Virus record (IMG/VR): IMGVR_UViG_3300037067_002687
Span: 6,734-70,733 of that record
Direction: 5' to 3' (one strand)
DNA length: 64,000 bases
From: a virus
Lineage: Duplodnaviria > Caudoviricetes
This document shows, one piece after another, positions 2,175-43,328 of the stretch; positions within the stretch are counted from its first letter, which is position 1; each line of letters opens with the position of its first letter. The position numbers were made by a program, and so were the translations under genes. The notes under the pieces were generated by a model. It saw only the letters and a program-made list of their open reading frames with translations, was not told where the DNA came from and did no database searches.

Positions 2175-2525
2175 ATGGAATATCAGGAACCATGGGTATG
2201 GTTGGGAGAGAACGAGGAGACCGGCAAGGCTGACTCAGGGGATTGCCTCCTGATTGCTTCCCATAACGGGGGCGGACCGGCCGTGTTCCTTGGATGGGAT
2301 GAGCGCAACGCTGCCACGCTCACAAGGATGCTTACGACCATCCGCACCATCTTGGACATACGCCAAGCTGGCCGGGTGGAAATTGCCGTCGATACGTGGG
2401 ATGCCTTGCATCATGCCGTCCATAAGCTATTGGCCTGCAAGGAGAAAGACGCAGATTTACCGGCCTTGCCCGAGGGGATTGCTGGATTCGTGAGTCTTGC
2501 CAATTTTCCTGTTGACAAGATTTAA
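2175..2525 (+). CDS. hypothetical protein
   Basis: 116-aa ORF starting 5 nt after the previous stop. Confidence 0.6.
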   Translation: MEYQEPWVWLGENEETGKADSGDCLLIASHNGGGPAVFLGWDERNAATLTRMLTTIRTILDIRQAGRVEIAVDTWDALHHAVHKLLACKEKDADLPALPEGIAGFVSLANFPVDKI

Positions 2526-2540
2526 GAGAATCGCTATTCT
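2512..2540 (+). promoter_or_regulatory. sigma70-type promoter
   Basis: TTGACA (2512-2517), 17 bp, TATTCT (2535-2540). Confidence 0.7.
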
Positions 2541-2582
2541 ATCCGGACATCGTTTATTTTCCAAGTTTTCAAGGAGGTTGAC

Positions 2583-2663
2583 ATGCCAAAGGACAATGTT
2601 CCCAGCGAAGAACTCGACGACGAACTCGACGACGAAGAAGAAGACGAAGATGAGGAGGAGTAG
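2583..2663 (+). CDS. 26-aa highly acidic micro-protein MPKDNVPSEELDDELDDEEEDEDEEE
   Basis: AAGGAGG RBS at 2571-2577, ATG 2583, TAG 2661; own promoter and terminator; below the ORF-track cutoff. Confidence 0.65.
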   Translation: MPKDNVPSEELDDELDDEEEDEDEEE

Positions 2664-2685
2664 CCTCCGTCCGGCTTAATTGCTC

Positions 2686-2736
2686 CCCGGCCGGCCGTTG
2701 CTACAAGTCACGGAGCGGTCGGCCGGGTTTTCTTCT
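2686..2736 (+). terminator. intrinsic terminator
   Basis: CCCGGCCG (2686-2693) / CGGCCGGG (2720-2727) stem followed by TTTTCTTCT. Confidence 0.7.
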
Positions 2737-2757
2737 AACCCATGAAAGAACACTACA

Positions 2758-3303
2758 ATGTCCGAAGAGATGTGCCCCTGCGGAAAGCCGTTGCATTACA
2801 CCGACGAGGCGGAGAAGGCGTTTGTCGATTCAATGGTCGATTCACTCGGGCTTGAGGTCGAGATTGAGGTAAGGGGCGTCGGGGTCTTCTCCGTCAATCG
2901 ACACTACATTGCCCTGCATGGGTTTAAGGGAGAGGACCTAGAGGAGTTGGCCGCTAAGGGAATCGTCAGGAAGATTCGCGGAGTAGAGCGGGAGCCCACG
3001 AACATATCGGACTCGGAATCCCTTATCGTCCTGGTCAACCGTTTGAAAAACGGAAGCGAAAACATCATCGCCGTACCAGACCGTGAAGGCGGGTGGCTGC
3101 CGCTCTTGGCGCTGGGTGATATGATAGAGAACACCAATAAGCTATCCGTGGTCATTGAGGCCGGGATGCGGGCCTGCGATGATACGGGCGAGTTGGTGGT
3201 GTATAGATTCACGAATCGCGAGAACATCACGGAGGAGTGCTATGAACGGCTTGCAAACATGGGAAGCCATGAGCCCAAGGATACGGTTCGACCGAGAGCG
3301 TAG
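2758..3303 (+). CDS. hypothetical protein
   Basis: 181-aa ORF; N-terminal CPCGKPLHY motif. Confidence 0.65.
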   Translation: MSEEMCPCGKPLHYTDEAEKAFVDSMVDSLGLEVEIEVRGVGVFSVNRHYIALHGFKGEDLEELAAKGIVRKIRGVEREPTNISDSESLIVLVNRLKNGSENIIAVPDREGGWLPLLALGDMIENTNKLSVVIEAGMRACDDTGELVVYRFTNRENITEECYERLANMGSHEPKDTVRPRA

Positions 3304-9613: not shown

Positions 9614-10692
9614 TCCGCTAGTCTCTGAAGGGCCCCGTCGATTCTGGACTTCAGGCCGTCGCGTTGCTCCCGGCAGACGGCGAGGTCCGCGCGAAACTCC
9701 GCGCGGTCTTGAAGTAGCTCGTTAATTACGATGACCGGATTCACTCCTTCGCGTTGTCCTCCGCAGGAGTAGCAGGGGCACGGATTTTCGCCGTGCGCCA
9801 CGGTTGAGATGATTTCGCATTTACGGCAGAACATGAACCTCTTGCCGTTCTCCATGCTGCCATCACAAGCAAGGACCGTTCCGCGAAGCGAGGCGACTTC
9901 ATCCCGAAGGGCTGAGTTTGATGCCGAGAGCGTTGCGATGGTCTCGTTGAGTTTCCTGGACGTGGACTCTAGGGATTTAATCCTAGCGTCCTTGGAGGCA
10001 TTGTCGTTGAGTAGTTCCTTCTTTTTATTGAACATCTCACGCACCATGCCCCTCACGTTCACTACGGCGCGCGCGGCGCCGCATTTCTGGCACGGCGCGT
10101 ATTGGTTTCCCGGTGATATAGATTCTCTTGAGAGAGTGCCACAGTTTCCGCAATGCAGGTCAACCGCGTAGAACGTCGAGGAAAGAATAGCTTTATTGCG
10201 AAGTGATTCCACTTCAGCCCTGCTTTGACGCAACTGTACGGCCATGCTGTCGCGGTCTTCGGTCAGCGAGGAAACCAGAGTTTGCTCAGTCTTCAATAAC
10301 GCAATTAGATTCTGCTTTTCCTTAGCGAAATCGCGCTTCAGGTAATCGGAATAGTTTTTGGCGTTCCCTAGTTCGTCGCGGCAGACTTGCAGCTTCTCGC
10401 GCATCCGGTCACGCTCGAAAGCCATTCGCGCAACGGACTTGTATTTCTCGTTGACGTCTTCATGGTCAAATAACTTCTCCAGCGATTCCACGCGACACTC
10501 GATAAGACACTTCTCGACGGACTCACCCAGCGACTTTGCTACCTCAACAACAGTGGGCGTCCATGAACTTGGCGCGATGGCGGCAATGGACTCCAAGACC
10601 GACGGGCATATCCTGCCCCAGTCGGGATGACTCATGCTCGCCAGCATATACTGCGCCACTTTTACTGCGTTGTTCTTAGTTGTTTCATCCAT
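9595..10692 (-). CDS. coiled-coil protein with two zinc ribbons
   Basis: Heptad-rich segments alternating with CGNC...CQKC and CRKC...CYSC. Confidence 0.7.
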   Translation of the reverse strand: MDETTKNNAVKVAQYMLASMSHPDWGRICPSVLESIAAIAPSSWTPTVVEVAKSLGESVEKCLIECRVESLEKLFDHEDVNEKYKSVARMAFERDRMREKLQVCRDELGNAKNYSDYLKRDFAKEKQNLIALLKTEQTLVSSLTEDRDSMAVQLRQSRAEVESLRNKAILSSTFYAVDLHCGNCGTLSRESISPGNQYAPCQKCGAARAVVNVRGMVREMFNKKKELLNDNASKDARIKSLESTSRKLNETIATLSASNSALRDEVASLRGTVLACDGSMENGKRFMFCRKCEIISTVAHGENPCPCYSCGGQREGVNPVIVINELLQDRAEFRADLAVCREQRDGLKSRIDGALQRLAEWINPQ

Positions 10693-29397: not shown

Positions 29398-29450
29398 ATT
29401 ATAGCACTAAGGCGATTCGATGTCAATACCGTTTTTTGACAATTTGTCAG
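29398..29450 (-). promoter_or_regulatory. consensus sigma70 promoter + operator copy 6 (TTGACAATTTGTCAG, 29436-29450)
   Basis: - strand TTGACA (29426-29421), 17 bp, TATAAT (29403-29398) with TG; operator ~10 bp upstream of -35, inside the last codons of the giant gene. Confidence 0.85.
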
Positions 29451-32400
29451 ATTTCGGATTATTTCCTGTTTTGAGGCTATTCGCCATGTCAATCAGGGCC
29501 TTTCGGTCTTCCGGCTTCTGCTTGCGGACTATGCGCGACCTCACCAGAGGACGTAGCGATAAACGCTCCTCCTGGGTGGCTTCTTTCCAGACGAGCTTCA
29601 ATTCCTGCGTCGATAGGTTCCGCGCCCTCCATTGCAGGTCCGTCATTTGCCCCTTCTTACGGAGATTCACGGCTTCACGATGCGAAATGTCGCCGGACTT
29701 CAAAAGCCCGCTCACCGCCTCAGTGCCAGCCTTGACGTCGCCCTTGCGGAAGGCCGCGAGGGCCGGCTGCTTAGCCTCAATCTTATGGCGTTCGTCCTCG
29801 GTGATACCGGACCCTAGTTTATTCGTCAGCAGCGTCTTGGCAAGCTCCCCAGCGGCCGTGGTGGGCTGTGCCATGGTCGTAACACCATAGCTGCGAACGG
29901 CTTGCTCTAAAATGGCCTTATCGGCGTCCTCCTTGGGTGTTCCTGATACCTCGACCCCAAACAGGCGCGCGAGGGACTTGCCGACACCGTACATGAGCGG
30001 GTTTTGTGCCTCCATGGCGGCGCGGGTGTTTTCGACCTTCTGGGCCATCCCGCCCTCGGGGATTCGTTCCGCTTCCATCTGGCCCCGCATGTCCATGAAT
30101 TGACTTCCAGTCAGGGCTTTCGATAGGAACCCAATCCCAGGACCCGTGAAGGGGTGCATGACGGTCTGTATCGTCTCCGTCAGCATGTCTCCCATGACTT
30201 GATTGGCGTTCCTGCCCTGTTGGACGTCCCGCATCAAGGAACGCAACCCAAGCGACCGTAGGCCGCGTGACAGGCCCTCCACCTGGAAGATGTCCAGGAT
30301 TTTCCGGCGGCCCTTTTCGTCGTCGCCGAGGTCGATAGAGCCTAGCGGTGTTCCGGGTCGTCCAAAGGGGCTTCCGCTGTTCATGTAGTTGGCGATAGCG
30401 GCCATGGTGGGTATTAGCGCCAGCTTGGAAAGCTGCACTAGGCGTGCCTCGGTGGCGGCGGCCTTTGATGCTGCCTCGAATCCCGGATTTCCTAAGACGG
30501 CGCGCCGCGCAACGCGATTCATGGTCTTGCCGGCCACAATGAAAGGCGAGAGGCCGTAATCGCGCAAGTTCTGTTCAACCTTCCCCATGACGCGCCGGTT
30601 GTAGACGCCAAGCTGATTGATGAAGTCGCGGCGATTGCCTGGAGTGTCCTTGGCGGAACCGCGCTTCACGAGGTTCGTGAAGAAGTCGTCAAGCACAAGA
30701 CGGCTGGCGGTGTCGATGGCATGGATGGCCTTGGCACCCGGCCACTTCGTTTGATAGGCGGGGCGGATGGCGCCAATCTTCGCAAGCTCGGCGGTGCGGG
30801 CCACAACGTCCGGAGTCTGATTGACAACGTCCGACATCTTCCGGACGATGCGTACCGCGGAGTCGGCTCCGGAAAGGAACGGAATCTTCCGGAGAACGTC
30901 ACTCAAGGTGGACTCTGCGCCTTGCGAGTTGGTGATGGTTCGCCAGAGGTTGAGACTATGGCTGACGGCGTCGGCCTGACTGAGGAGTTGCACCTTCGTC
31001 AGGATGTCGGCCCACCATAATGGATTTCCCTTCATGTCCGTGTTGAGGATGCGTTTCGTTTCCCCGACCAAGTCGTTCCGCACCCAGATAGCCCCGCGCT
31101 CATTGATGTGCGTCTGAAGCGTCTCGGGGTCCGTCACTGGCAGGTCAACCGGGATTCGCTCGTATCCCTCGGGTCCCTTGAACTCGAATCTCCTACCCGC
31201 TTGGCGCGGAGGCTCCAGGACCGCGACACGTGAATCCACCAAGGATTGGTAGAACCGTACTTTCGTTGCTTGATTGTACCGTGGGCCGACCACCGCCATG
31301 AGGTTGGTCTCCAGGTCGTTCGAGTATTCCCCGGTTCCCTTGGCTCTCCGCATGTAGGAGTCTCGACGAACGTCTGGATTTCGGTGGGCCCCTGCGCCAG
31401 CGCCGGACCCTTGCGGCATGGGATTGGTGTTATTCTCTCTGAACTCGCCCCACTTGGCCGCGCGGTCTAAGGTCAGCAGGTTGATTCTAGCGTCCGTATG
31501 CCTCCCACGACCGTCCTGCGGCGTGTCCTTATCGAGCATCTTCACTTCATTGTAAAGCTCGTTTAGGTATGGGTTTACGTGCGTTTTCCATAGCTCAACC
31601 TGCTCGGTAATTTTCGGGTCATTCAGCTTCTCCTGGACGAACGCATCTAAGGCGTCCAGGTCGTGAGTTTCCTTAATGTCCTCGGCCCACTTCATGTGGC
31701 CGGACGAGAGGGAGGCGTCGTAAATCCCGAGAATGTTGTCGGCATTTAAGACGTCAGCCACGTCGGCCATTTCCTTTTTGGAAGGCTTGTTGCCGAACAC
31801 CTTTTGCAACAGGTCAGCCACGATGGGTCTTGCCGCCTGGGAAGCATAGGCATGACTGAACGCCGCATCACGAACTGACGAGGTAGTCCGGGATAGTTTC
31901 GGAAGGTGCGAGTTGCCGAACAGGTCCCGAATCTGGTCGGCGTGGTTCTTGAAGGCACCGCCAAGCTCAACACTGGGAAGCATAGCCGGCATGACGGACC
32001 CGTAGACGCGCGTGGAATCTTCGCCGTTGTCGTCCGGTGGAGGCGACGTGTACTTCGGCGGTTTGGGTGGACCCTTCCCGCTGCCTCCAGCATCAGACCA
32101 GTCGCGCACTTGCGGACCCTCGGGTTTCGGCGCCTCGGCGGTTGGTATCGTCTCGCCGACAATCTTCCGGGCGGTCTCGCGGTTGGACTCTGCCTGTAGG
32201 GAGGTAATCCGCATCAGAGCATCAATCGCCGCCTGTTGCCGGTCGGGCTCTGTGACGTAAAGTTCCATCTTGATGCCGCCACGACTGACAAACTCATTGT
32301 TGGCTGCTTCCTGAAGCGGCTTGTTGAGGAAGTAGGCTCCACCAGTCCTCTTGGAGATAGGAACCCGCACGACAAGGATACCGTTGGACTTCATCACGGA

Positions 32401-35400
32401 AACAACATGGTCTGGGCTGGTGAGCGTAATCCCTGCCTCGACAGCTTCCATGGAGTGCGAAGACTTCGACATGACAATCGGCTTGTTCTTGGCCCACTGC
32501 TGGACGTCGAAGTTCTTGGGTAGAAGCAATCCCCTCTGGATGTTCCCCTTATTGTCGGTGAAGAAGGTGGGCTGAGCGCGGACGCCCTCCAGCTTCCCAG
32601 CGGCGGCAATGACGTTCCCGGTGGCGATGTAACGCTTCTCGCGGGACGTTGTTCGGGCATCGTCGAATTGCTTCAGGACTCCGTCGAAGTCGGAGTAGCT
32701 AGGACGTAGGGCTGGGTCCGCCACGGCAATCTGTGATACGGGTATCTTGACAACGCGGGTCGAATCGGCGAGGGCCACCTCGACCGTCCAGGCGGAAGGC
32801 GCCGATGGGTTCTTGGCCTTCCCTGTTCGAGAGAACCCCAGGACGATGCCGTCAATCCCTCCGTCCATGGTGTCGTAGGTGATAGTCGTGCCCGGCGCAA
32901 GCTGACGCATCGCACCCGTTACCTTGTCGAAGTAGGTGGACATCGACTGTCGGCGGGCATTCCTTGTGTCCGGGTCCACAACACCCTCTAACTGTGAATC
33001 CAGGTACTCGATTGTCGATTTCCTGAGCGTCTCGTAGGATTCCTTCGTCCAGGACTTACGATTATCGGGGTCCGACATATCCCCCTGCTTCCCACCAGAA
33101 GCCTTTAGCCTCTTCTTGATTTCCTTGGACGACATCGACTGTCCAACCTTCTTGGCGTCCACCTCATCGACATAGGCGGAATGCTCGAAGGGATTATCCG
33201 ATTCGTCGTTCCCGTCCGCAATCTTGAAACGTGACGTCGTCTTCGCTTCGAGCGGTAGCGTTTTCGCTTCCAAGGGGTTCTGCCCGGACTGCTCAAGCTC
33301 CTCGATTTTGGAGTTAAACATGGCCGTGACGTCGTCCCAGAAGGCTTGCTGCATCTCGACCGGAAGAAGCGCCACGCGACCACTGAGCTTACGGGCTACG
33401 GCGCCAGGGTCGCCAGCCGATACCTGCTTGCGTAGGACATCGTCCGAAAGGGGGCTGCCTATCATGTGATGCGCGTCGGAGTTTTCAGAGAACCAGCGAA
33501 TGATGGCCTCGTCACCAATCTTATTGATGATGTCCGGCACGTTGAAGTTGATGGCGCTTTCCGCATTGGCGGTTACGTTGGCGTTGAGGTTCCTGAGCTT
33601 CTTGGTTAGCGTTGCGGCCGGGCGAAGTTCCGCGGGCACGTCCGTCATGGGAAGCACGTACATCGGCATGTTGGTCTGGCCGTTGACTTCGCGAATCTGT
33701 CCTGTCCGGTTGATGCGCCCGAGAATCTGCATGAACTCGTCAATGTTCTTAGCGGCCTGCGCCACCAGCATGACGCGGCGTTTCTGTCCGGCTACCGGGT
33801 TCTTTTCGCTGGCGTGGGCGCTAATGCCTTCGGCCGACGAACGGTTTCCTATGATGACGTCCACGGTTCCATCGTTGAATCCGGCAACACTGGCAAGTTT
33901 TCCTTGACTCCCGACTTCAGTATCGGGCCTGTTCGTCAGGATGGCGCTCCCGTCCGCTCTGTAGTCTATGACCATCTGACGGCCGGTGATTTCTTTGACG
34001 TTCATGCCGGCTTGGCGCATCTTGTAAATCATGCGGTCAATCGGAGAGGCCGTAACGCCCTTCTCGAACTTGTTGATAAGCCCTTGCGTCTTCTCAAATA
34101 GCTGCAAGGCGACTGGACCTAACTCCTCATCGGTCAATTGCCGACGCTCCCAAGTGGACTTGTCGTCCTTGTCGCCCTTGAGCGTGATTCGGCGGCTACG
34201 GTCTAGGTACTTCTGCAACAGGTCGCGGAAGTCGATGTCAATCTTGTCTCCGGCGTTCAACTCGTTCTGGTCGGCGTACCCTTGAAGGACCGATTCTAAA
34301 GTGTTGTCCACCGCTACAAAAACCGCCTTGCCTTCCTTCCAGTGCTGAATCGCTTCGTCGGCGACGACATCCGCCTTGGAGGCAAAAATCATCTGGTCCA
34401 CCAGATTCCATAGGATAGAGGAGAATTGCGTACTCTCCACCCCGGCGTTTCCCACCGCATTGTCGGCGGATAGCATTCCGCCTTGGCTGACAATCGTGGA
34501 TTCCACCGCTTCCATGGACTCCTCTTTCGCACGGTCGAAGTCGTTGATGGAGCGGAAAATCTCCGTCATGCTGTCGATTTTGGAGAGGTCGGTCGGAATT
34601 ACCTTTTGGTGGAAGTCAATTCCATCCCAGGACTGCTCCAGGCGTGTTAGGTATCCGCCCTCGGTCATCATTTCCGAGGCCATTTGCTGTCCAGGGATTC
34701 CGAGCTTATGGAAGATTTCCGGCAGCTTCTTCGGGTCATCGACGGCGGCGCCCAGTCCGGACCGGAAGTAGAGGTCAAGCACTCCAGGATGCTTCGCCCA
34801 GGTCGCCGTGGAGTAGGCTACGCCGGCCGCATCGCCCACGAGGGTACGCGCGAACTCAGCGCGATTCTCCAGGTGGTTTTTGGCGGCGCGGTCGTTTGTG
34901 CCACCACCGCCAGCGTTATGGGCTTCGTCCGAAATCACGAACGAGTTTGACGCTAGGGAGCGCAGGAAGTTCCTTCGCCAGGGTTCGGACTTTGCGACGG
35001 TCTGAATCTGAGGGTAGGTCGTGAAAATCGCGTCGAACGTAACGGACTTCCCGTTCACCTTGGCGGTCAGACCCTTGCCTTTCAGGTAGTTCTTGGCGGC
35101 CTCTTGACAGATACGCTTCGCCTCTTCGCCGGTCTGACTGATAACGCGGCCATCACTTAGCTTGACTTTAGACCGGCCAGAGAAATCGCCAGTGGCAAGG
35201 AACGTGAACGGCTTCTCGGGAGTGTTCAGCCCGACCTCCGTCATGGCGTCAATTTGTGACGAAAGCAAGTCCGGGGACTTCGTCAGGAACAGAGGAATCA
35301 GAGACTTACGCTTGGCGTATTCCATGATTCCGGCAATGATGCGTCCCTTGCCAAAGCCTGTCTGGTGTCCAATGACGGTGGCTAACCCTTTTTCATGGTT

Positions 35401-38400
35401 GTCAAAGACAAGCCCGAGAGTGTCCACTTGCTGGGCAGAAAATGCCGCCTTCGCTTGCTCTGGAGTGAATCCAAGCCGCTCCTGGACAAACTGGTCCATC
35501 GGTCCCTGTCGTTCCTGGACCCGTTCAAGAGCTTTCGCGTAGGCTTGAGACTGACCACGCGGAATGCACGCATCCATGGCAGGATTCGTCGATGCAACCG
35601 GCGAGGCGACTTGGAAAGCATTCTCTCCGGCACTAGATACACCCAAATCCGGCGGTGCAGCAGCAATATCCTTAGCCGCCGGCATCTTGCCTTCCGCACT
35701 AGGACCTGGGGGGCCATCATCTTCTACCGCTCCTCGTCCGGCAGGAACGTCACCAGCCAATCCCACAGGCTGTTCAGTTCCAGAATCTCGTTCACGCAAT
35801 CCTTCTGGCTCTCCACCGGTTGCGGGAAGCTCCCCTGACTCAGGCCGTACCGGCTCATTAGGATGCTCTGGAACGCTGGGTGCTGGGGAAACCTCGACAG
35901 GTCCTTCGGTAGGTCCAGGAAGTCGCCCAGCTTCTCCTCCCATAGTTCCGCCACGGTCAGCGACGGGTTGTCCTGCTGTTCCGCCATCCAGGCGATTCTC
36001 TGCCCCAGACGATTCAGGAACTTCTCCCACGTCATGTCCTGGTCGGTCGGCTTCAGCGGGACCGCCAGCGGGCCCGGTACGTTCGGGGCCCACGCTAGGA
36101 GCTTCGACTGCCCCGCGATTGGCCAATTTGTCATTGTAAAGGTCCTCCCAACTGCTGTACCATTTCGGGATTCCGTTCTCATTGATGTTGTAGGGCTTCG
36201 GCCGACTGCTTGGGTAATGCCCCTTGATAACGATAACGTCAACAGGGAACGACGCCCCCTGCTTGGAGTATAAGTCTCCATCCACCGTAAAATGGTCAAC
36301 TACATTATACTCGTTGTAGAGCTTGTCGTAAAACGGTTTTCTGTTGCGGTATGCCTTTCCCCTTACGAGCGGGGTGCTTCCCTCTTTCCCCTTGGCGCCG
36401 AGAATCAAGACGGCCGACCCGTCAGACTTCATGTGCGAAAGAGCTTCTAATGCAATAGCGTGGTCCACTTGGTCGGTCTTGACGCCGTCGATGTCCCAGG
36501 CAACCTTCTTGCCGTCCGGGGTGTGAACGGTCCCGAAAGGCGGATTCGCGATAACCACGTCCTTCTGGAAAGCACCCGCCGGCTTGGAGGCATCGTTCTC
36601 GGTGGTGCTGAATCCAAGCGCCCTGAGCATGGCGGCACGGCCGGGGTCAAGCTCATTGGCGTAGGTGTGGTCCGGGTCCGCATCCATTAAGAGCATCCCG
36701 TTACCGGCAGTAGGTTCGTAGACTGACTTAGTTTTGTCGATTCCTGCTAAGCTGGACGCGACCTTCGCCAGTGGTGCCGGGGTGCAGTAGGCTTGCTTCT
36801 CGACGGAGCCGGACGTTCGGCTCGCGAGATTCGGTTGACGCTCGTAGAGGTCAAGGAGGGACTCCCAGGGGGTCTTTCCGGCGGCGGCGTTCCTCGCAGC
36901 CCTGACGACACCCTGTTCGACCGCTTCGTCAATCTCTTTGTTTAGCTTGGGATTGGTCCGGACGTCCGTACCGAGAAGCTCGCCGGCCTCTTTTCGGGCC
37001 TCAAGGATGGTTCCGTAGGACTTTCCTTTGTCGAATTGTTCCCCAAAGTGTTCGCCGAGTGCAATGCGGTTTGGTGCTTCAGGGCTTCCAAAATCTCTTG
37101 GAGTGGCTGCCGGTTCTGGTGCATTTTCGGCCTCACCTTTGACGGAAGGCTCCCCAGCGGGGGGTTCTCCGAATCGCTTATCGGCCCACATAACCGCGGA
37201 TTTCGGGACGTCCACCACCCGGCCGTCTTCTGCGCGAACGCTTAGGCTGGGGTCGTCCGGCGTGGCGTCGTACCGGACTGTCCCGACGATGTCCTCTCCC
37301 TTTGCCTTAACGCGGACCTTCTCGCCTTCAGAGTAGCCGCGCTTCCCGGTGATTCCCTCCTCTAGGTCCGAACGCAACTTCGACCGGCGCTCATCGTAGG
37401 TCGGCTGTTCGGCCGAATACTTCTCGAATCCCTCCCTGGTCCCGAGAACGGCAAAGCGCGGTTTCTCCTCCCCAACCTCGCGCAAGTCAGCCTCTCCCGG
37501 CTTCGGCAGGCCGCCCATGGTATCGACCACCACATCGCCGCCGTACTGGGCAGCAATGCGACGGGCGGTATCCTTGGACGGGATGCCTTTATCGAGAATC
37601 GTTCGACCATCCTGGACAACATCACCCGAGCGTGCGGAATCCCATTGGGGAGTCTCGCTGTTTATCGCATCTGGGGCCCGCCTGTTGGAAGCTGCATCGG
37701 CTGTCGCTGCGGCATCCCCTGGGGTGGCATTTGTGGCCTCTGGCCTTGGGGCGGCATTCCCTGTTGGGCCATTCTCTGGGGCGGGGGCACTCTCGATGCT
37801 CCTGCTCCCGGTATCGGGACTGGGCTCCCGCAATTCGGGCACTTCACCACCGACGGGCGCGGGGCTGGGCCCGACCCTGGGCGGGGTCCGAACCGACCCG
37901 GCATCCCCTGGTTCGCCGGGACTGGGACCACCACGATTGTCTTCCCGGACTTGGACTTCTTTTTGCGTATTGCCATTCTGCTCTCCTTCTTGGTTGACGG
38001 GTTGCGTGACTTGATTTTCAGCCCGCTCGACAGGCTGCCGCTCTTGTAGAGTAACAAGCCCGGCCGGCGGCGTTGGCAGGGAATTGATTCGTGCGGTCAG
38101 GTCTCCAGCCTTCAGAGCGCCAGGGGCCGACATTATCATCATGGGTCCTACGGCATGGGCAGCGGACTTCAATCCGGCCGCTCCGATGGCCATAGCGTCC
38201 GGATAGTCGGTCTGACCGGCTAACCAGCGGCCAAACTCATGGGAGGCGGCGTCGATAGCGCCGGCGCTGGCCATGATGGCGGAACCTTTCGCAGTGTGCT
38301 TTATCAGGTGGCTCGCCATGACCTCAACGGCCTTCTTTCCGACAAGGGCGTTGATTTCCTGTTGTGAGGCACCCGCACCCCAGGCGGCCTTTGACCAGAC

Positions 38401-39291
38401 GGCCCCCGGCAAGCCACCGAATAGGATAGATTGGCCTACCATGCTTCCCAGGGCGACGTAGTGGGCCGTTTCGGGGTCTAGCCCCTCCTGGATTCCTTGC
38501 GAGTAGCTGGCGTCGTAGGTGGGCTTCCCGAACACGGCTGCGGCGGCACCCGTTTGGCCCGTGAGGCTTGCGGCCAGCTTGGGCACTCCAGCCCCAATCG
38601 CTCCGGCTGTCATCTTGGTTCCGAGAGCCTCCACCGCGCGAACGGACGGGTACATAGCGGCAGCGCCGACAGCCCATTCCCTCGGGTCCAGTAGCGAAGC
38701 CTCGGGCGAAACCTCGGGGCTTATGGTGTCCCGCGTGTTGCGAATCTGGTTGAGGAATTGCTCCTGGTCGGGCTCGAAGTTTCCTACGTAACGCTCGATG
38801 GGCTTGTATACCATTTCGCCAAGAGAGCCGATGCCGGAAGCCACGGCACCGATTGACCGGTCCACGAAATTGCGTTCGTAGTATTTCGGTTCCTGGGACG
38901 CGATATGTGAAACCGCCGACAAGACATCCTTCCGCAATTCCGGAGGAGTTTGCTGCGCTACGTCAATGTCGCCCTTCAACTCACGGCCGATGTCGCTAAC
39001 CGCATTGGCGGCAAGGCCGAACACCTTGTTGGTCTTGGCGATTTCCTCCGGGGTAGCAATCGGGTCATTCATCCAGGAATCTTCGTTTCCTGGGTCCTTG
39101 GTGTAGTCGTGCGATTCGTACACTAAATTGCCATTGACCAATTTCGGAAAGAAGGTGTCCGGAAGCGGCTCCTTGGACGCCCATGGGGGCTGGACCTTCG
39201 GCGCACCCGGAAGTGGCCCCTTGTAGTCCCGCGAGTACCCAACAATCGGGTCGTCTTCCCAATTCTCAGGAACGGATTCCATTGACTCCAT
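29407..39291 (-). CDS. giant DarB-like ejection polyprotein: N6-adenine MTase + strawberry-notch SF2 helicase (3294 aa)
   Basis: MTase motif I VYEPTAGNG (~36700) and IV NPPF (36535-36546); helicase GHQTGFGKGR (~35350), SDEAH (~34925), QILGRINRTGQ (~33715); last gene of the internal-virion block. Confidence 0.85.
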   Translation of the reverse strand: MESMESVPENWEDDPIVGYSRDYKGPLPGAPKVQPPWASKEPLPDTFFPKLVNGNLVYESHDYTKDPGNEDSWMNDPIATPEEIAKTNKVFGLAANAVSDIGRELKGDIDVAQQTPPELRKDVLSAVSHIASQEPKYYERNFVDRSIGAVASGIGSLGEMVYKPIERYVGNFEPDQEQFLNQIRNTRDTISPEVSPEASLLDPREWAVGAAAMYPSVRAVEALGTKMTAGAIGAGVPKLAASLTGQTGAAAAVFGKPTYDASYSQGIQEGLDPETAHYVALGSMVGQSILFGGLPGAVWSKAAWGAGASQQEINALVGKKAVEVMASHLIKHTAKGSAIMASAGAIDAASHEFGRWLAGQTDYPDAMAIGAAGLKSAAHAVGPMMIMSAPGALKAGDLTARINSLPTPPAGLVTLQERQPVERAENQVTQPVNQEGEQNGNTQKEVQVREDNRGGPSPGEPGDAGSVRTPPRVGPSPAPVGGEVPELREPSPDTGSRSIESAPAPENGPTGNAAPRPEATNATPGDAAATADAASNRRAPDAINSETPQWDSARSGDVVQDGRTILDKGIPSKDTARRIAAQYGGDVVVDTMGGLPKPGEADLREVGEEKPRFAVLGTREGFEKYSAEQPTYDERRSKLRSDLEEGITGKRGYSEGEKVRVKAKGEDIVGTVRYDATPDDPSLSVRAEDGRVVDVPKSAVMWADKRFGEPPAGEPSVKGEAENAPEPAATPRDFGSPEAPNRIALGEHFGEQFDKGKSYGTILEARKEAGELLGTDVRTNPKLNKEIDEAVEQGVVRAARNAAAGKTPWESLLDLYERQPNLASRTSGSVEKQAYCTPAPLAKVASSLAGIDKTKSVYEPTAGNGMLLMDADPDHTYANELDPGRAAMLRALGFSTTENDASKPAGAFQKDVVIANPPFGTVHTPDGKKVAWDIDGVKTDQVDHAIALEALSHMKSDGSAVLILGAKGKEGSTPLVRGKAYRNRKPFYDKLYNEYNVVDHFTVDGDLYSKQGASFPVDVIVIKGHYPSSRPKPYNINENGIPKWYSSWEDLYNDKLANRGAVEAPSVGPERTGPAGGPAEADRPGHDVGEVPESSGAENRLDGGTAGQPVADRGGTMGGEAGRLPGPTEGPVEVSPAPSVPEHPNEPVRPESGELPATGGEPEGLRERDSGTEQPVGLAGDVPAGRGAVEDDGPPGPSAEGKMPAAKDIAAAPPDLGVSSAGENAFQVASPVASTNPAMDACIPRGQSQAYAKALERVQERQGPMDQFVQERLGFTPEQAKAAFSAQQVDTLGLVFDNHEKGLATVIGHQTGFGKGRIIAGIMEYAKRKSLIPLFLTKSPDLLSSQIDAMTEVGLNTPEKPFTFLATGDFSGRSKVKLSDGRVISQTGEEAKRICQEAAKNYLKGKGLTAKVNGKSVTFDAIFTTYPQIQTVAKSEPWRRNFLRSLASNSFVISDEAHNAGGGGTNDRAAKNHLENRAEFARTLVGDAAGVAYSTATWAKHPGVLDLYFRSGLGAAVDDPKKLPEIFHKLGIPGQQMASEMMTEGGYLTRLEQSWDGIDFHQKVIPTDLSKIDSMTEIFRSINDFDRAKEESMEAVESTIVSQGGMLSADNAVGNAGVESTQFSSILWNLVDQMIFASKADVVADEAIQHWKEGKAVFVAVDNTLESVLQGYADQNELNAGDKIDIDFRDLLQKYLDRSRRITLKGDKDDKSTWERRQLTDEELGPVALQLFEKTQGLINKFEKGVTASPIDRMIYKMRQAGMNVKEITGRQMVIDYRADGSAILTNRPDTEVGSQGKLASVAGFNDGTVDVIIGNRSSAEGISAHASEKNPVAGQKRRVMLVAQAAKNIDEFMQILGRINRTGQIREVNGQTNMPMYVLPMTDVPAELRPAATLTKKLRNLNANVTANAESAINFNVPDIINKIGDEAIIRWFSENSDAHHMIGSPLSDDVLRKQVSAGDPGAVARKLSGRVALLPVEMQQAFWDDVTAMFNSKIEELEQSGQNPLEAKTLPLEAKTTSRFKIADGNDESDNPFEHSAYVDEVDAKKVGQSMSSKEIKKRLKASGGKQGDMSDPDNRKSWTKESYETLRKSTIEYLDSQLEGVVDPDTRNARRQSMSTYFDKVTGAMRQLAPGTTITYDTMDGGIDGIVLGFSRTGKAKNPSAPSAWTVEVALADSTRVVKIPVSQIAVADPALRPSYSDFDGVLKQFDDARTTSREKRYIATGNVIAAAGKLEGVRAQPTFFTDNKGNIQRGLLLPKNFDVQQWAKNKPIVMSKSSHSMEAVEAGITLTSPDHVVSVMKSNGILVVRVPISKRTGGAYFLNKPLQEAANNEFVSRGGIKMELYVTEPDRQQAAIDALMRITSLQAESNRETARKIVGETIPTAEAPKPEGPQVRDWSDAGGSGKGPPKPPKYTSPPPDDNGEDSTRVYGSVMPAMLPSVELGGAFKNHADQIRDLFGNSHLPKLSRTTSSVRDAAFSHAYASQAARPIVADLLQKVFGNKPSKKEMADVADVLNADNILGIYDASLSSGHMKWAEDIKETHDLDALDAFVQEKLNDPKITEQVELWKTHVNPYLNELYNEVKMLDKDTPQDGRGRHTDARINLLTLDRAAKWGEFRENNTNPMPQGSGAGAGAHRNPDVRRDSYMRRAKGTGEYSNDLETNLMAVVGPRYNQATKVRFYQSLVDSRVAVLEPPRQAGRRFEFKGPEGYERIPVDLPVTDPETLQTHINERGAIWVRNDLVGETKRILNTDMKGNPLWWADILTKVQLLSQADAVSHSLNLWRTITNSQGAESTLSDVLRKIPFLSGADSAVRIVRKMSDVVNQTPDVVARTAELAKIGAIRPAYQTKWPGAKAIHAIDTASRLVLDDFFTNLVKRGSAKDTPGNRRDFINQLGVYNRRVMGKVEQNLRDYGLSPFIVAGKTMNRVARRAVLGNPGFEAASKAAATEARLVQLSKLALIPTMAAIANYMNSGSPFGRPGTPLGSIDLGDDEKGRRKILDIFQVEGLSRGLRSLGLRSLMRDVQQGRNANQVMGDMLTETIQTVMHPFTGPGIGFLSKALTGSQFMDMRGQMEAERIPEGGMAQKVENTRAAMEAQNPLMYGVGKSLARLFGVEVSGTPKEDADKAILEQAVRSYGVTTMAQPTTAAGELAKTLLTNKLGSGITEDERHKIEAKQPALAAFRKGDVKAGTEAVSGLLKSGDISHREAVNLRKKGQMTDLQWRARNLSTQELKLVWKEATQEERLSLRPLVRSRIVRKQKPEDRKALIDMANSLKTGNNPKSDKLSKNGIDIESP

Positions 39292-39294
39292 GTT

Positions 39295-41007
39295 TTACTT
39301 CCCCCTCTTGGTTCGGTAGGTTCCGTCCGGAGCTAGGTAGGTCGTTCCTTGCGTTGTCTTTGGTTTCCAGTCCGGGATATTTTCGGTCCCCGCGGAACCG
39401 GGTGATGGCTGCGGCGCGGCCGGACGCTTGGGTGCAACACTCACCGGAGGCGCTGGCGGGGGATTGCTTACCGCTTTTTGCGACGACTGCGGGATTTCGC
39501 CGCCCGACGAGCCGGCCCAGCGGTAGAACTGCATGTACTGCTCATAATTCTCTCCTGGATGCGTTTGACGAAACTCCTGGCGGGTGAACGGACGGCCCGC
39601 CTTGATATGCTCAAGGTACTCCTGAAGTTTTTCCGGAGGAGCGCCTTTAATCTTATCAATCCAGCCGACGGGAACCGGTTCCGATTCGGGCTTCTCCCAA
39701 TCGACTGGAGCTAAAATGCGACCTGTTTTCCGTCGCTGAAGTTCCGCGTTCGCCTCTTCGCTCTCTTGCCCACCGTAAGCGCTGGAGTAATCGCCAATCT
39801 GCTTGGCCGTAGTTCCGACGAACTTCCTCTTCAGGTAATCGGAATAGTCGGACGAACGCTGGCGCGCGGACGAGCCGAAATTGCGCTCCTGAAAATCCAT
39901 CTGGTCCATGGCGAACTGTCGGGCTTGTTCGTAGTCCTTGGGCTCAAGTGGAATAACCAGACCGGAGTCAGGGTCCTTGACGGTACGCCGGCGAAGCTCG
40001 GCATCCACAAGGCCATTGAAGGTCTTTAGCCGCTCCGCATCTTGACTCGCCTGCGCTGCCTCCACCTTTGCCTGAAGGGCGGCCTGCTTCTCTTGCTGCT
40101 GCTGCTGCTGCTTCAGCATCTCGAATTGGTTTTCAAGAGGCTTTGGGCGGCCGTGCTGGTCGTAGGTCATCCACATTCCCGTTGAGGGCGACTTCCACAT
40201 GCGGGATTCGCCCTGGGCCTCAATGGGAGAAACTACGTTACCGCCAGACGCTGACGGCGACAGGCTAGAACGCGGGGCATATCCGCTATTCGTTGCCGTA
40301 ATCGTCCCGGCAGGCCCCTTACTCCAGCCAGTACCAGGACCAGAAGGAAGGTTCTCGTCATCGCCCACTTGGTTAGCAAGGTAAGTGGGCCCATTGAATT
40401 GAGCGTGTTCTGGGACATTCTGACCTCCATTTTCGATGCCTTGGTATTGCCCGCCCGGCAGTTCGGCTTGATTCCTGCCGTAATCGGGCTGGTTGTTCGG
40501 CGCGTTCTGGGAAACATCCCACGATTTCGTCTTGGGGTCGAATATCCACGTTGCCCCAGGGCTTCCGAACGCGCCATCACGGTCCACATAGACCATCTTG
40601 GAAATCTGCTGCTCCGGCGGAGGCGGTAGTTTCCATGAAGGAGTCGGTATCGGGACAAGACTACTTTCCGCGACGTCGCACTCGTCGAGTGCCGTCTTGC
40701 GTGATTCCTCGGGAAGGTCTGCCCCGTTAATCCAGGCACGGGCTGAATTGATTCGGCTGAGTTGCTGTTCCTGCTGCGGCGTAAATCGCAAGGTCCCGGC
40801 CTTGAGGCCCTGCTCCATTTCGGCACGCTTCTGCTGCTTCTCCTGCTCGCGCATCTGGTCCATGACTTGCATGGTCTGGATGGCCTCTTGCTGTCGGTAC
40901 AGGTCGGCCGCGGCAGCGTGCAGTCCCAGTGACTCGTTAGGGTCGGTTTCGGTGTCTGCCGAATCCTGGGGCTCCTCTTCGGAGTCAAGGTAATCGTACT
41001 CTCCCAT
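39295..41007 (-). CDS. putative internal virion (ejection) protein
   Basis: 570 aa, Q/E/P-rich helical; position between tail and giant protein. Confidence 0.65.
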   Translation of the reverse strand: MGEYDYLDSEEEPQDSADTETDPNESLGLHAAAADLYRQQEAIQTMQVMDQMREQEKQQKRAEMEQGLKAGTLRFTPQQEQQLSRINSARAWINGADLPEESRKTALDECDVAESSLVPIPTPSWKLPPPPEQQISKMVYVDRDGAFGSPGATWIFDPKTKSWDVSQNAPNNQPDYGRNQAELPGGQYQGIENGGQNVPEHAQFNGPTYLANQVGDDENLPSGPGTGWSKGPAGTITATNSGYAPRSSLSPSASGGNVVSPIEAQGESRMWKSPSTGMWMTYDQHGRPKPLENQFEMLKQQQQQQEKQAALQAKVEAAQASQDAERLKTFNGLVDAELRRRTVKDPDSGLVIPLEPKDYEQARQFAMDQMDFQERNFGSSARQRSSDYSDYLKRKFVGTTAKQIGDYSSAYGGQESEEANAELQRRKTGRILAPVDWEKPESEPVPVGWIDKIKGAPPEKLQEYLEHIKAGRPFTRQEFRQTHPGENYEQYMQFYRWAGSSGGEIPQSSQKAVSNPPPAPPVSVAPKRPAAPQPSPGSAGTENIPDWKPKTTQGTTYLAPDGTYRTKRGK

Positions 41008-41021
41008 TGCCGTTGCTCCCC

Positions 41022-41789
41022 TTATGCGTAGTAGTCGTCGTAGGAATAGTCGCTCGTGTCGTCGTAGTACGGGTCGTAGTACGAGTCGGAGTAATCGTCA
41101 TAGCTCGTTCCGTCGTAGTAATCGCCATAGCTCGTGTCGCCATAGTCGTAATAGCTGCCCCAGTCGTCCGCGTAGTTGGAGTCGGTCCCAGTTAGGGCAT
41201 CCACCGCCCAATCGCCATAATTGGCGCGGATGGTGTCAAGGTCGGACTGTGAGTAATCGGAGTATTGGTCCGGGAAGAAGTCGTTCAAGCTCACGCCGCC
41301 CGAGTTACGTAAAAACTGGTCGTACTGACTCTGGACGCCCGACGTCGTAAGCTCCGATGCGTCCCAGGGGAGGCCCGACGTGTTGGAAGCAACACTCCCC
41401 GAGGAGGCTTGACCGGGTGTGGTTTGCTGAGTAGGATACACCGACTGATTTCGAGAATCGGCGATTTGCGTTCTGGCGGCCAATTGCTTGTCGAGCAACG
41501 CCTGCTGCTGCGCATAGGCCGCGTCCCGCTGCTGTTGTTGCGATAGCTGATTGGCCGACTGCAACCACTGGTCGCGTTGCGTCTGGTACTCCTGCTGGGA
41601 AGCAAGTTGGTCCTTGGCGGCTTGCAGGGACGTCAGACGGTCCCAATACTGATACGTCAACTTGTCAGCATTGGATTGCTTTTGATAGGCGAGGTTGGCG
41701 TCGTATTCGGCCGACTTACGCTGACCTCCGGCAAAGCCCGCACCGGCAATGACACCCATAGCCGGCTGATTCTGTACTGTGATGCCCAT
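41022..41789 (-). CDS. putative internal virion protein with Tyr/Asp-rich C-terminus
   Basis: GVIAGAGFAGG N-terminus, Q-rich helix, low-complexity YD tail. Confidence 0.7.
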   Translation of the reverse strand: MGITVQNQPAMGVIAGAGFAGGQRKSAEYDANLAYQKQSNADKLTYQYWDRLTSLQAAKDQLASQQEYQTQRDQWLQSANQLSQQQQRDAAYAQQQALLDKQLAARTQIADSRNQSVYPTQQTTPGQASSGSVASNTSGLPWDASELTTSGVQSQYDQFLRNSGGVSLNDFFPDQYSDYSQSDLDTIRANYGDWAVDALTGTDSNYADDWGSYYDYGDTSYGDYYDGTSYDDYSDSYYDPYYDDTSDYSYDDYYA

Positions 41790-41804
41790 AATAGCTCTCC
41801 AGAG

Positions 41805-43328
41805 TTAGACGTATCCCCAAGGAAGAAGGTCAGAGGGAATCGTACTATTCCCCATTGCGCTGTTCGAGCCGATGTTGGCCGTCGGCGTGCTGCTATCGAC
41901 AAGCCCCATGTCGGTGACACCGTCCGGAAGTGTCGGATAGATGAAGATTCCGCTACCGCCAGTGGCAGACCCTTGGCCTGTTCCGTCGTCCTTTGACGCC
42001 ATGGATGTACCGCGATTAACACCCGAGGAACCGCTCCCACCACCACCTCCTCCGCCTCCGCTGCTTGGGTATCCGCCGCCACCGCCCCCTCCCACAATGC
42101 CGCCAGTGCCAGTCATCGTCCCGGCCTTTTTGGCGGTGGTCGCCACGGTCGAAGTGTACGAATTACCAGTATTGGTCGATGATGGAGTGTTGGTTATCGT
42201 GGAAGCTGGAGTCGTGTCGGGTATCGTGGAGTCGGTTCCGATGTTTTGGGCCATAGCCGCCAGCAAGCTCATGTCGGGGTACTCGTCCGTTCGCCGCTCC
42301 ATGGCACCAAGCTGATTCGTGAGCGTTTGGCTCTGGTAGCCTAGCTTCTGTTGAGCGAGGTAGTTCTCCAGGTTGTTGAGTGAGTATTGCTTTTGCTTCT
42401 CATAAGCACTCCCAACCCCGGCGCCGATAGTGGTATTCGAGAGGCCGGACGACACGAGCTTTTGCTGCCCAGCGGAGGCGGCATTGCGAAACTCGTCCTG
42501 GATGTCCGTTCTTTGCTGCCCACCCATCTGGTCCACCGTGGCCATCTGTTGGGCGTAGAGGTCGTTGTAGCCGGTCATCATCTGATTGTACCGGCTCTCA
42601 TTCGACGCCTTCGCGGTATCGTAGCTGCTCTGGTACTGATTCGCCAAGTCCGTCAACATCGCCTGCTGATTCAGCTTCCCGTCGGTAAACCAGGAGGTCG
42701 GATTCAGGCCGGTTGACGCGGACGTGGTGGTGGCGGTCTGCTGACTCCCCGGAACCTGGATTCCCCCGGTTCCGGTCGTTACCGTCGAGTTTCCGTTCGC
42801 GTCGTCCGGCATACCAAGGCCGGAGGCAGTGGAGGAAGTCGTTCCGGTTGCAATTCCTTGCTGCTGTTTGAGCTTCTCGACCAAGGAGGAGCCGTCGTAT
42901 CCGGTCGGCTGTGGCAGGCCTGTAAAGGGATTGGTCGCCACGCTTCCAGTTGCGGACGCCTGCTGGCTGTGGGCTTGCTCATACGCAACACGAGCCGGGC
43001 TTCCCGGCGGAAGACTCCTCGGGTCAACACCTAGCTGCGCCGCGGACGCCGACGCCTGATTGGTGGATTGTGTGCCAGCGGGTGCCAGATAACCAGCCTG
43101 CGATAGGGCATCCCTTAGCTGGGACGCATCGGGCGTCAGGGTACGTCCGGCATTCTCGGCATCCCCGATGGATTTCCCGACCTTATTGAGGTTGCCCTCG
43201 ACGACGTTGTAGGCCACGTCCGGGTGTTGTTGACTGGCCTGCCAGACCCTAGCATCCGCCAAGGTTCCGTAGTTCCCAGCGCCAATGTACTGTTGATATA
43301 AGGCCCGGTCTTCGGCGACACCCATCAT
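41805..43328 (-). CDS. putative internal virion/pilot protein
   Basis: 507 aa, T/S/G/Q-rich with poly-Gly tract; first gene after promoter 43356-43384. Confidence 0.65.
   Translation of the reverse strand: MMGVAEDRALYQQYIGAGNYGTLADARVWQASQQHPDVAYNVVEGNLNKVGKSIGDAENAGRTLTPDASQLRDALSQAGYLAPAGTQSTNQASASAAQLGVDPRSLPPGSPARVAYEQAHSQQASATGSVATNPFTGLPQPTGYDGSSLVEKLKQQQGIATGTTSSTASGLGMPDDANGNSTVTTGTGGIQVPGSQQTATTTSASTGLNPTSWFTDGKLNQQAMLTDLANQYQSSYDTAKASNESRYNQMMTGYNDLYAQQMATVDQMGGQQRTDIQDEFRNAASAGQQKLVSSGLSNTTIGAGVGSAYEKQKQYSLNNLENYLAQQKLGYQSQTLTNQLGAMERRTDEYPDMSLLAAMAQNIGTDSTIPDTTPASTITNTPSSTNTGNSYTSTVATTAKKAGTMTGTGGIVGGGGGGGYPSSGGGGGGGGSGSSGVNRGTSMASKDDGTGQGSATGGSGIFIYPTLPDGVTDMGLVDSSTPTANIGSNSAMGNSTIPSDLLPWGYV

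Follow-up and report, generated by a model that had tools for sequence, protein, structure and literature searches.

What does a protein of 3,294 amino acids (aa), with a DNA methylase and a helicase joined in a single chain, do at the end of the late genes of a phage? The question is raised by IMG/VR virus record IMGVR_UViG_3300037067_002687, a linear sequence of 70.7 kb that is estimated to be 80% complete, and of which bases 6734-70733 were analyzed here (64,000 nucleotides, referred to as the window). The gene lies at 29407-39291 on the minus strand, as do all features located below by window coordinates, and its open reading frame (ORF) list and translation bear out the first-pass annotation in that the frame is real, intact and runs from a single ATG to a stop codon. 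The encoded protein, hereafter the giant, is, as judged from its alignments, a conserved carrier, consisting of an N-domain, a proline-rich linker and a C-terminal module (C-module) of ~840 aa, with a cargo in its middle. With a probability of roughly 70%, we consider it to be a polyvalent carrier-plus-cargo protein that is packaged into the virion, ejected at infection and acts against restriction of the entering genome.

The build of the giant becomes apparent from the best match to its C-module, a protein of 1,439 aa (P0036) that aligns with the two ends of the giant and nowhere else. Residues 95-372 of P0036 match aa 109-403 of the giant (29% identity, E 1e-24) and residues 597-1439 match aa 2443-3280 (44% identity), and the giant is therefore a carrier with ~1,900 aa inserted in its linker. 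The contig of P0036 has tail genes in common with the window and holds the carrier gene in the same slot, and in another protein, P0038, the same N-domain and C-module enclose a ddrB-ParB domain. The N-domain (aa ~100-403; 38083-38994) is predicted, at low confidence, to be helical, has a glycine plus alanine content of 35% and lacks cysteine; local iteration with the N-terminal 420 aa retrieved P0036, P0037 and P0038 only, while a word-based search with the same 420 aa came back empty and missed even P0036. The N-terminus had been described as hydrophobic and helical, of which the helical part stood, whereas the best 19-aa Kyte-Doolittle window scores 1.26 and none reaches 1.3, so that a transmembrane helix was rejected. 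The N-domain is followed by linker 1 (aa ~404-570; 37582-38082), which is rich in proline, glycine and acidic residues, is predicted to be disordered and has no secondary structure in the AlphaFold2 (AF2) model. It is one of three stretches of this composition, in agreement with the two linkers noted earlier, the first of them as proline-rich, the others being linker 2 (aa ~1061-1215; 35647-36111; 17% proline, 19% glycine) and linker 3 (aa ~2395-2440; 31972-32109; 20% proline), with a predicted local distance difference test score (pLDDT) below 50 over the first 52 residues of the C-terminal AF2 model. Domain-wise structure prediction, which the first-pass annotation had suggested, was informative for the C-module (pLDDT 85.3), but poor for aa 1-735 (six sequences, pLDDT 35), where helices at aa 80-400 and disorder at aa 403-570 were predicted. 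Ahead of the methylase, a small beta segment (aa ~650-700; 37192-37344) amounts to four low-confidence strands at aa 655-696 (pLDDT ~50), and its designation as SH3-like was not upheld.

The inserted part differs between members of the carrier family. A Pfam scan of 20 members with the C-module found ART-PolyVal in four and ddrB-ParB in two, and PBECR5, LPD1, LPD5, LPD23, RadC and a 2'-5' RNA-ligase-family domain once each. The Strawberry-notch (Sno) unit is present in two of the 150 listed clusters of the family, namely that of the giant itself and P0065, whose contig (L039) has an open frame that is 37% identical and likewise runs from methylase through Sno unit to C-module. The possibility that the giant is an assembly chimera was rejected, as the order is repeated in this second contig. 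The open frame of L039 (8771-16330) retains intact methylase motifs; what precedes the methylase in this gene (L039:8232-10034) lies in other frames, with the start set at 10001 by the gene caller, so that the sequence contains either one or two genuine frameshifts or errors of assembly. As a separate observation, the carrier gene of P0036 is directly followed (L004:14310-18188) by genes with matches to DDAH-like (weak), phosphatidylserine decarboxylase, PAD_porph, which is of the agmatine/peptidylarginine deiminase type, and thioredoxin, a metabolic gene set that is unusual for this position.

The first part of the cargo is a putative N6-adenine DNA methylase (aa ~735-1060; 36112-37089), in which motif I precedes motif IV and PHROG methylase families match aa 823-967. 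Its motifs are QAYCTP (X), EPTAGNG (I) and NPPF (IV, at aa 916), and among 33 homologues (28-43% identity) there is almost no variation in motifs X (QAYSTP), I (EPTAGNG) and IV (NPPFG), which confirms the earlier reading of a methylase with motifs I and IV intact. The second part is a Sno-type ATPase of helicase superfamily 2 (SF2) with a conserved C-terminal extension (aa ~1220-2385; 32137-35634). It is matched by Helicase_C_4 (63.7 bits, cut-off 30.5), ResIII (26.8 bits) and, marginally, AAA_34 (25.4 bits, cut-off 27). The Walker A motif GFGKGR (aa 1312), DEAH (aa 1455) and motif VI, GRINRTGQ (aa 1858), are all present, and motifs I, II and VI are near-invariant in these 33 homologues, so that the Sno-type assignment of the first reading holds as well. 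The near-invariance of these motifs argues for both the methylase and the Sno helicase being active. One chain thus joins disparate activities, that is a methylase, a Sno ATPase and two non-enzymatic end modules. The term polyprotein, which had been used for the giant and implies cleavage, found no support, as neither Pfam nor PHROGs revealed a protease domain, and the same holds for nuclease and toxin domains.

A database search yielded 34 proteins, including the cluster of the query itself. The methylase-Sno block (aa ~735-2385) is all that 32 of them, giants of 2,100-5,300 aa, have in common with the query, and many of the 32 bear domains of polyvalent proteins (LPD38, LPD39, LPD1, LPD5, ART-PolyVal, InPase and SLT). 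When the dyad was compared by tblastn with 50,697 phage records, three matched, namely Bacteroides phage BS-TP4 and two Acinetobacter phage records. In BS-TP4 (PQ571277.1; L006:1405-17580), the closest cultured phage with the dyad in the collection searched, the match at 29% identity lies in gp3, a "hypothetical protein" of 5,391 aa that adjoins the portal gene. P1 DarB and Bcep22 gp75 were unmatched in this search, hence the helicase clade of the giant differs from the classical DarB type. Of 72,556 plasmid records, 489 contain the dyad (27-35% identity across ~90% of its length), and 190 of these 489 are conjugative; the plasmid proteins have the same dyad, but lack the phage carrier ends. 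Taken at the level of sequence similarity, this shows a plasmid-type methylase-Strawberry-notch unit loaded onto a phage carrier.

The C-module (aa ~2443-3280; 29452-31965) is mostly helical and free of cysteine, and defines a large family. An exhaustive phmmer search with the C-terminal 904 aa returned 822 clusters at E<=1e-3 and 458 at E<=1e-30; in 148 of 150 members checked the module stands at the C-terminus, preceded by a stretch of 745 aa in the median and of 3,079 aa at most. Pfam, PHROGs and NCBIfam contain no model of the module, and a search of NCBIfam for a "PLxRFG"-type model gave no match. In Pfam, no family matched the C-terminal 904 aa at E<=1, LPD38 (PF18857) and LPD39 (PF18858) included, and N-domain and C-module match none of the LPD families of Iyer 2017 that are held in Pfam. 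A scan of IMG/VR with the single C-terminal sequence gave no match, while an alignment-based scan gave 30 loci. Carrier-module relatives occur in two of ~185,000 species genomes, the metagenome-assembled genomes (MAGs) of a Phycisphaerales (L008) and a Syntrophobacteraceae (L007) member, one of these two hosts being a planctomycete; nearly all of the family is therefore found in contigs of free phages, and prophages seldom have it.

The AF2 model of the C-module, built from an alignment of 42 sequences, is of good quality (pLDDT 85.3, predicted template modelling score 0.84) and mostly helical with three short beta-strand elements, in line with the helical C-terminus of ~850 aa described before. 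A fold search of BFVD produced 82 matches at E<=1e-3. The lowest E-value was 8e-11, but TM-scores reached only 0.3-0.4. The best 50 of these 82 are all proteins of phages or uncultured viruses, in most cases segments from further along a long chain, and roughly one quarter of the 50 are annotated as LPD-containing; the matches include proteins of Cellulophaga phi19:3, Ralstonia Alix and E. coli PTXU04. The nearest clusters in the ESM Atlas (score 0.96-0.97) are viral proteins of ~860-960 aa with LPD38 or LPD39. Comparison by hhalign with the C-terminal regions of LPD38-bearing giants gave a probability below 1%, and a profile search against PDB sequences, the C-terminus of P0003, SU10 gp20-24 and Bcep22 gp74/gp75 found nothing significant. 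From these models, the C-module reads as a very divergent relative, or else an analogue, of the ends of LPD38-type polyvalent proteins.

A further feature of the giant is its near-absence of cysteine. It contains three cysteines in 3,294 aa (0.09%), whereas the content of 29 further proteins encoded by the phage is 1.57% (binomial p 7e-19), and the two carrier ends of the giant have none. The same avoidance is seen in the carrier family, where 132 of 150 proteins are free of cysteine, as well as in 21 of the 32 related dyad proteins, and four cyanobacterial relatives (P0009, P0010, P0030 and P0031) have 0 to 0.5%. Such avoidance would mark proteins that pass through a narrow channel and the oxidising periplasm, as expected if the giant is delivered from the virion.

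The position of the gene agrees with this reading. The ATG of the giant lies 3 nt past the stop codon of the preceding gene for a 570-aa protein, after a GGGGGAAG ribosome-binding site, and the two genes are translationally coupled. Within the last codons of the giant, a promoter scan detected TTGACA-17-TATAAT with a TG in front (29398-29426, 12/12 matches), a perfect promoter that drives the next cassette. An exonuclease and a helicase are encoded downstream. With a start so close to the upstream stop and a new promoter in its last codons, the gene of the giant must close a long operon of late genes as its last cistron. Further upstream on the same strand are the genes for the large terminase, the capsid protein, a portal with a weak SU10-type match and an SU10-type adaptor (111.8 bits, three matched stretches), and no tRNA genes were found in the window. 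The podovirus context assumed at first sight is hence sustained, and the phage is, by these matches, a short-tailed one of the SU10 structural type. It has no close relative in the collection of 50,697 phage records, as megablast with the gene of the giant and tblastn with the capsid protein, the C-terminal 899 aa of the giant and the upstream 570-aa protein all gave no match.

Three late genes directly upstream of the giant (39295-43328) encode proteins of 507, 255 and 570 aa with 0, 0 and 1 cysteine, respectively, which are candidate partner ejection proteins; in L003 and L009, relatives of the 507-aa protein are likewise encoded ahead of the gene for the giant or the carrier. Together with the giant, the three genes resemble a four-gene ejection block comparable to SU10 gp20-24. 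A PHROG scan around 19 carrier genes gave scattered matches to "tail protein" and "internal virion protein" only, and none for the ten genes immediately upstream of the carrier genes.

Several phages provide precedents for a virion protein in this slot. In SU10, the five genes that end the module encode gp20-24, which occur in virions and are gone after genome release; the gene order is as in the window, and gp24 (1,473 aa) has the slot of the giant, being last, largest and helical, yet no similarity in sequence or fold was detected between the two, so that their equivalence is positional only. In JC1, gp69 (4,515 aa), which combines a lytic transglycosylase, a methylase, a SNF2 helicase, LPD3 and LPD38, closes the virion module and had the second-highest mass-spectrometry score in virions purified on caesium chloride (CsCl). 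The phi24B protein gp47 (LPD5, LPD1, LPD38 and MuF-C) is abundant in virions and was proposed as an ejection protein. JC1 gp69 and its counterpart Bcep22 gp75 (4,602 aa), known as "DarB-like antirestriction" virion proteins of Bcep22-like podoviruses, are like the giant in being very large chains that end the virion module just before the lysis genes, with an adenine methylase, then an SF2 helicase and a large conserved C-terminal region, but their helicase is of the COG4646/SNF2 type and they have a lytic transglycosylase, LPD3 and LPD38, whereas the giant has a Sno-type helicase and no lytic transglycosylase. In addition, hmmsearch did not match the C-module to Bcep22 gp75, and tblastn did not match the dyad or the C-terminal region in records of Bcep22-group phages.

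The principle of an ejection protein with an enzymatic cargo has been described before. The extended T7 gp16 or IVP-D family likewise comprises the largest, helical and last-placed internal virion protein of a podovirus, and enzymes may be built into it, for example the virion RNA polymerase of N4, although no similarity in sequence or fold was detected between the giant and the solved ejection proteins. IVP-D homologues host domains destined for the host cytoplasm, as in N4 gp50 and the methylase-bearing H66 gp60, and the table of such homologues includes BcepMigl gp69 and VT2-Sakai orf71 (Hardies et al., 2016, PMC4819975). Polyvalent proteins resemble the giant in that they combine several unrelated activities in a chain, adjoin late virion genes and are predicted to be injected, and among them the methylase-helicase dyad was described, the Sno type "in a few instances" (Iyer, 2017, PMC5512222). 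P1 DarB, according to work cited in that survey, is a virion-packaged methylase plus helicase that guards incoming DNA against type I restriction in cis (cited in PMC5512222). In contrast to the giant, DarB is a 2,255-aa head protein of a myovirus that requires DarA, Hdf and other partners. The concept of a polyvalent protein, or of IVP-D with cargo, is thus already published, and the first-pass annotation overlooked both this and the build of a conserved carrier with an insert. Its proposal of a co-injected DarB-like protein in the slot of the largest core protein gains from the position of SU10 gp24, the cysteine depletion and the precedents of JC1 gp69 and phi24B gp47, while the two roles that it added, in a DNA conduit and in pulling the genome in by the helicase, were not supported, and no similarity of the C-module to the solved ejection proteins of T7, N4 and DEV was detected.

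These comparisons suggest a course of events in which the carrier, that is the N-domain and the C-module, would be the largest ejection protein of the lineage and would be made late, along with the tail and ejection genes. It would take the chain into the head, from which it would be expelled through the tail at infection. The cargo is a unit of ~1,650 aa with an N6-adenine methylase and a Strawberry-notch translocase, such as plasmids commonly have. It would reach the cytoplasm together with the leading part of the DNA, move along the entering genome like P1 DarB, and methylate or otherwise shield the DNA before host restriction enzymes act.

Several results weigh against this proposal. The C-terminal 899 aa, as said above, have no match in any cultured phage among the records searched by tblastn, and profile comparisons detected no sequence similarity of the C-module to SU10 gp24, Bcep22 gp75 or the C-terminal regions that bear LPD38. 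The module has no match to a solved structure either, including the solved ejection proteins of T7, N4 and DEV. Given neither a sequence match nor a solved-fold match, the link to ejection proteins therefore consists of gene position, weak fold matches and language-model similarity. As for the cargo, the Pfam model N6_Mtase stays below its threshold (17.2 vs 20.4 bits), and expression late in infection would be just as fitting if the enzyme modified the progeny DNA ahead of its packaging.

This last point leads to the alternative that survives best, although we regard it as unlikely, namely that the giant is a late cytoplasmic enzyme which is itself never packaged, methylates replicated DNA ahead of packaging in the manner of an orphan phage methylase, and uses its end modules for assembly in the cell. 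Expression with the late genes and the intact methylase motifs would fit such an enzyme, and the packaging of the carrier family is deduced from precedents in other phages and from gene position, yet there is no obvious reason for a protein that stays in the cytoplasm to shun cysteine over 3,294 aa and in 132 of 150 carrier relatives. The same carrier moreover bears domains of the ART, RNase and ParB types, as injected effectors typically do, and virions of SU10, JC1 and phi24B contain the proteins that these phages encode at this position.

A second alternative, for which the odds appear distinctly poor, shifts the function from protection to transport, in that the chain would form part of a trans-envelope conduit whose Sno ATPase pulls the genome in, with methylation being secondary. 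The giant does occupy the slot of an ejection protein, and Sno and SWI2/SNF2 ATPases are translocases of double-stranded DNA (Iyer, 2017, PMC5512222), but the carrier relatives P0036 and P0038 function without an ATPase and, as noted, only two of the 150 listed clusters of the family have the Sno unit. A motor of ejection would also leave open why the dyad is carried by the 489 plasmid records, where no phage ejection happens, and why a conserved methylase is always fused to the Sno unit. Least probable of all is a host-takeover effector, in which the dyad would remodel or mark the host chromosome or competing mobile DNA rather than protect phage DNA, for while other cargoes of the carrier (ART, the RNase-like PBECR and RadC) look host-directed and the sequence reveals no target specificity, the giant has no nuclease or toxin domain by Pfam or PHROGs and its closest studied methylase-helicase analogue, P1 DarB, protects phage DNA in cis in the work cited by PMC5512222.

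The preferred reading of an ejected, anti-restriction carrier-plus-cargo protein can be taken further, if only as a tentative thought that we think more apt to be wrong than right. The carrier might be an undescribed ejection chassis without homology to LPD38 or IVP-D proteins, with a central slot for whole enzyme units taken from plasmids. The lack of cysteine throughout the family, which includes the enzymatic cargo, would then mean that the whole chain of ~360 kDa threads unfolded through the tail and the oxidising periplasm and refolds in the cytoplasm.

The accepted picture of such proteins is not changed by the giant, which extends it to a new phage lineage. What is specific here is the Sno dyad on a phage carrier, the contrast between an empty and a loaded carrier, the C-module of 822 clusters and the cysteine signature. 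The giant is a clean case of a conserved delivery carrier with an exchangeable middle and gives a name to a module that had been without annotation, and the near-absence of cysteine, being easily read from a sequence, could serve as a signature by which to pick out ejected proteins of uncultured phages. As a means of phage counter-defence, giant multi-enzyme proteins that are injected are widespread, yet barely studied.

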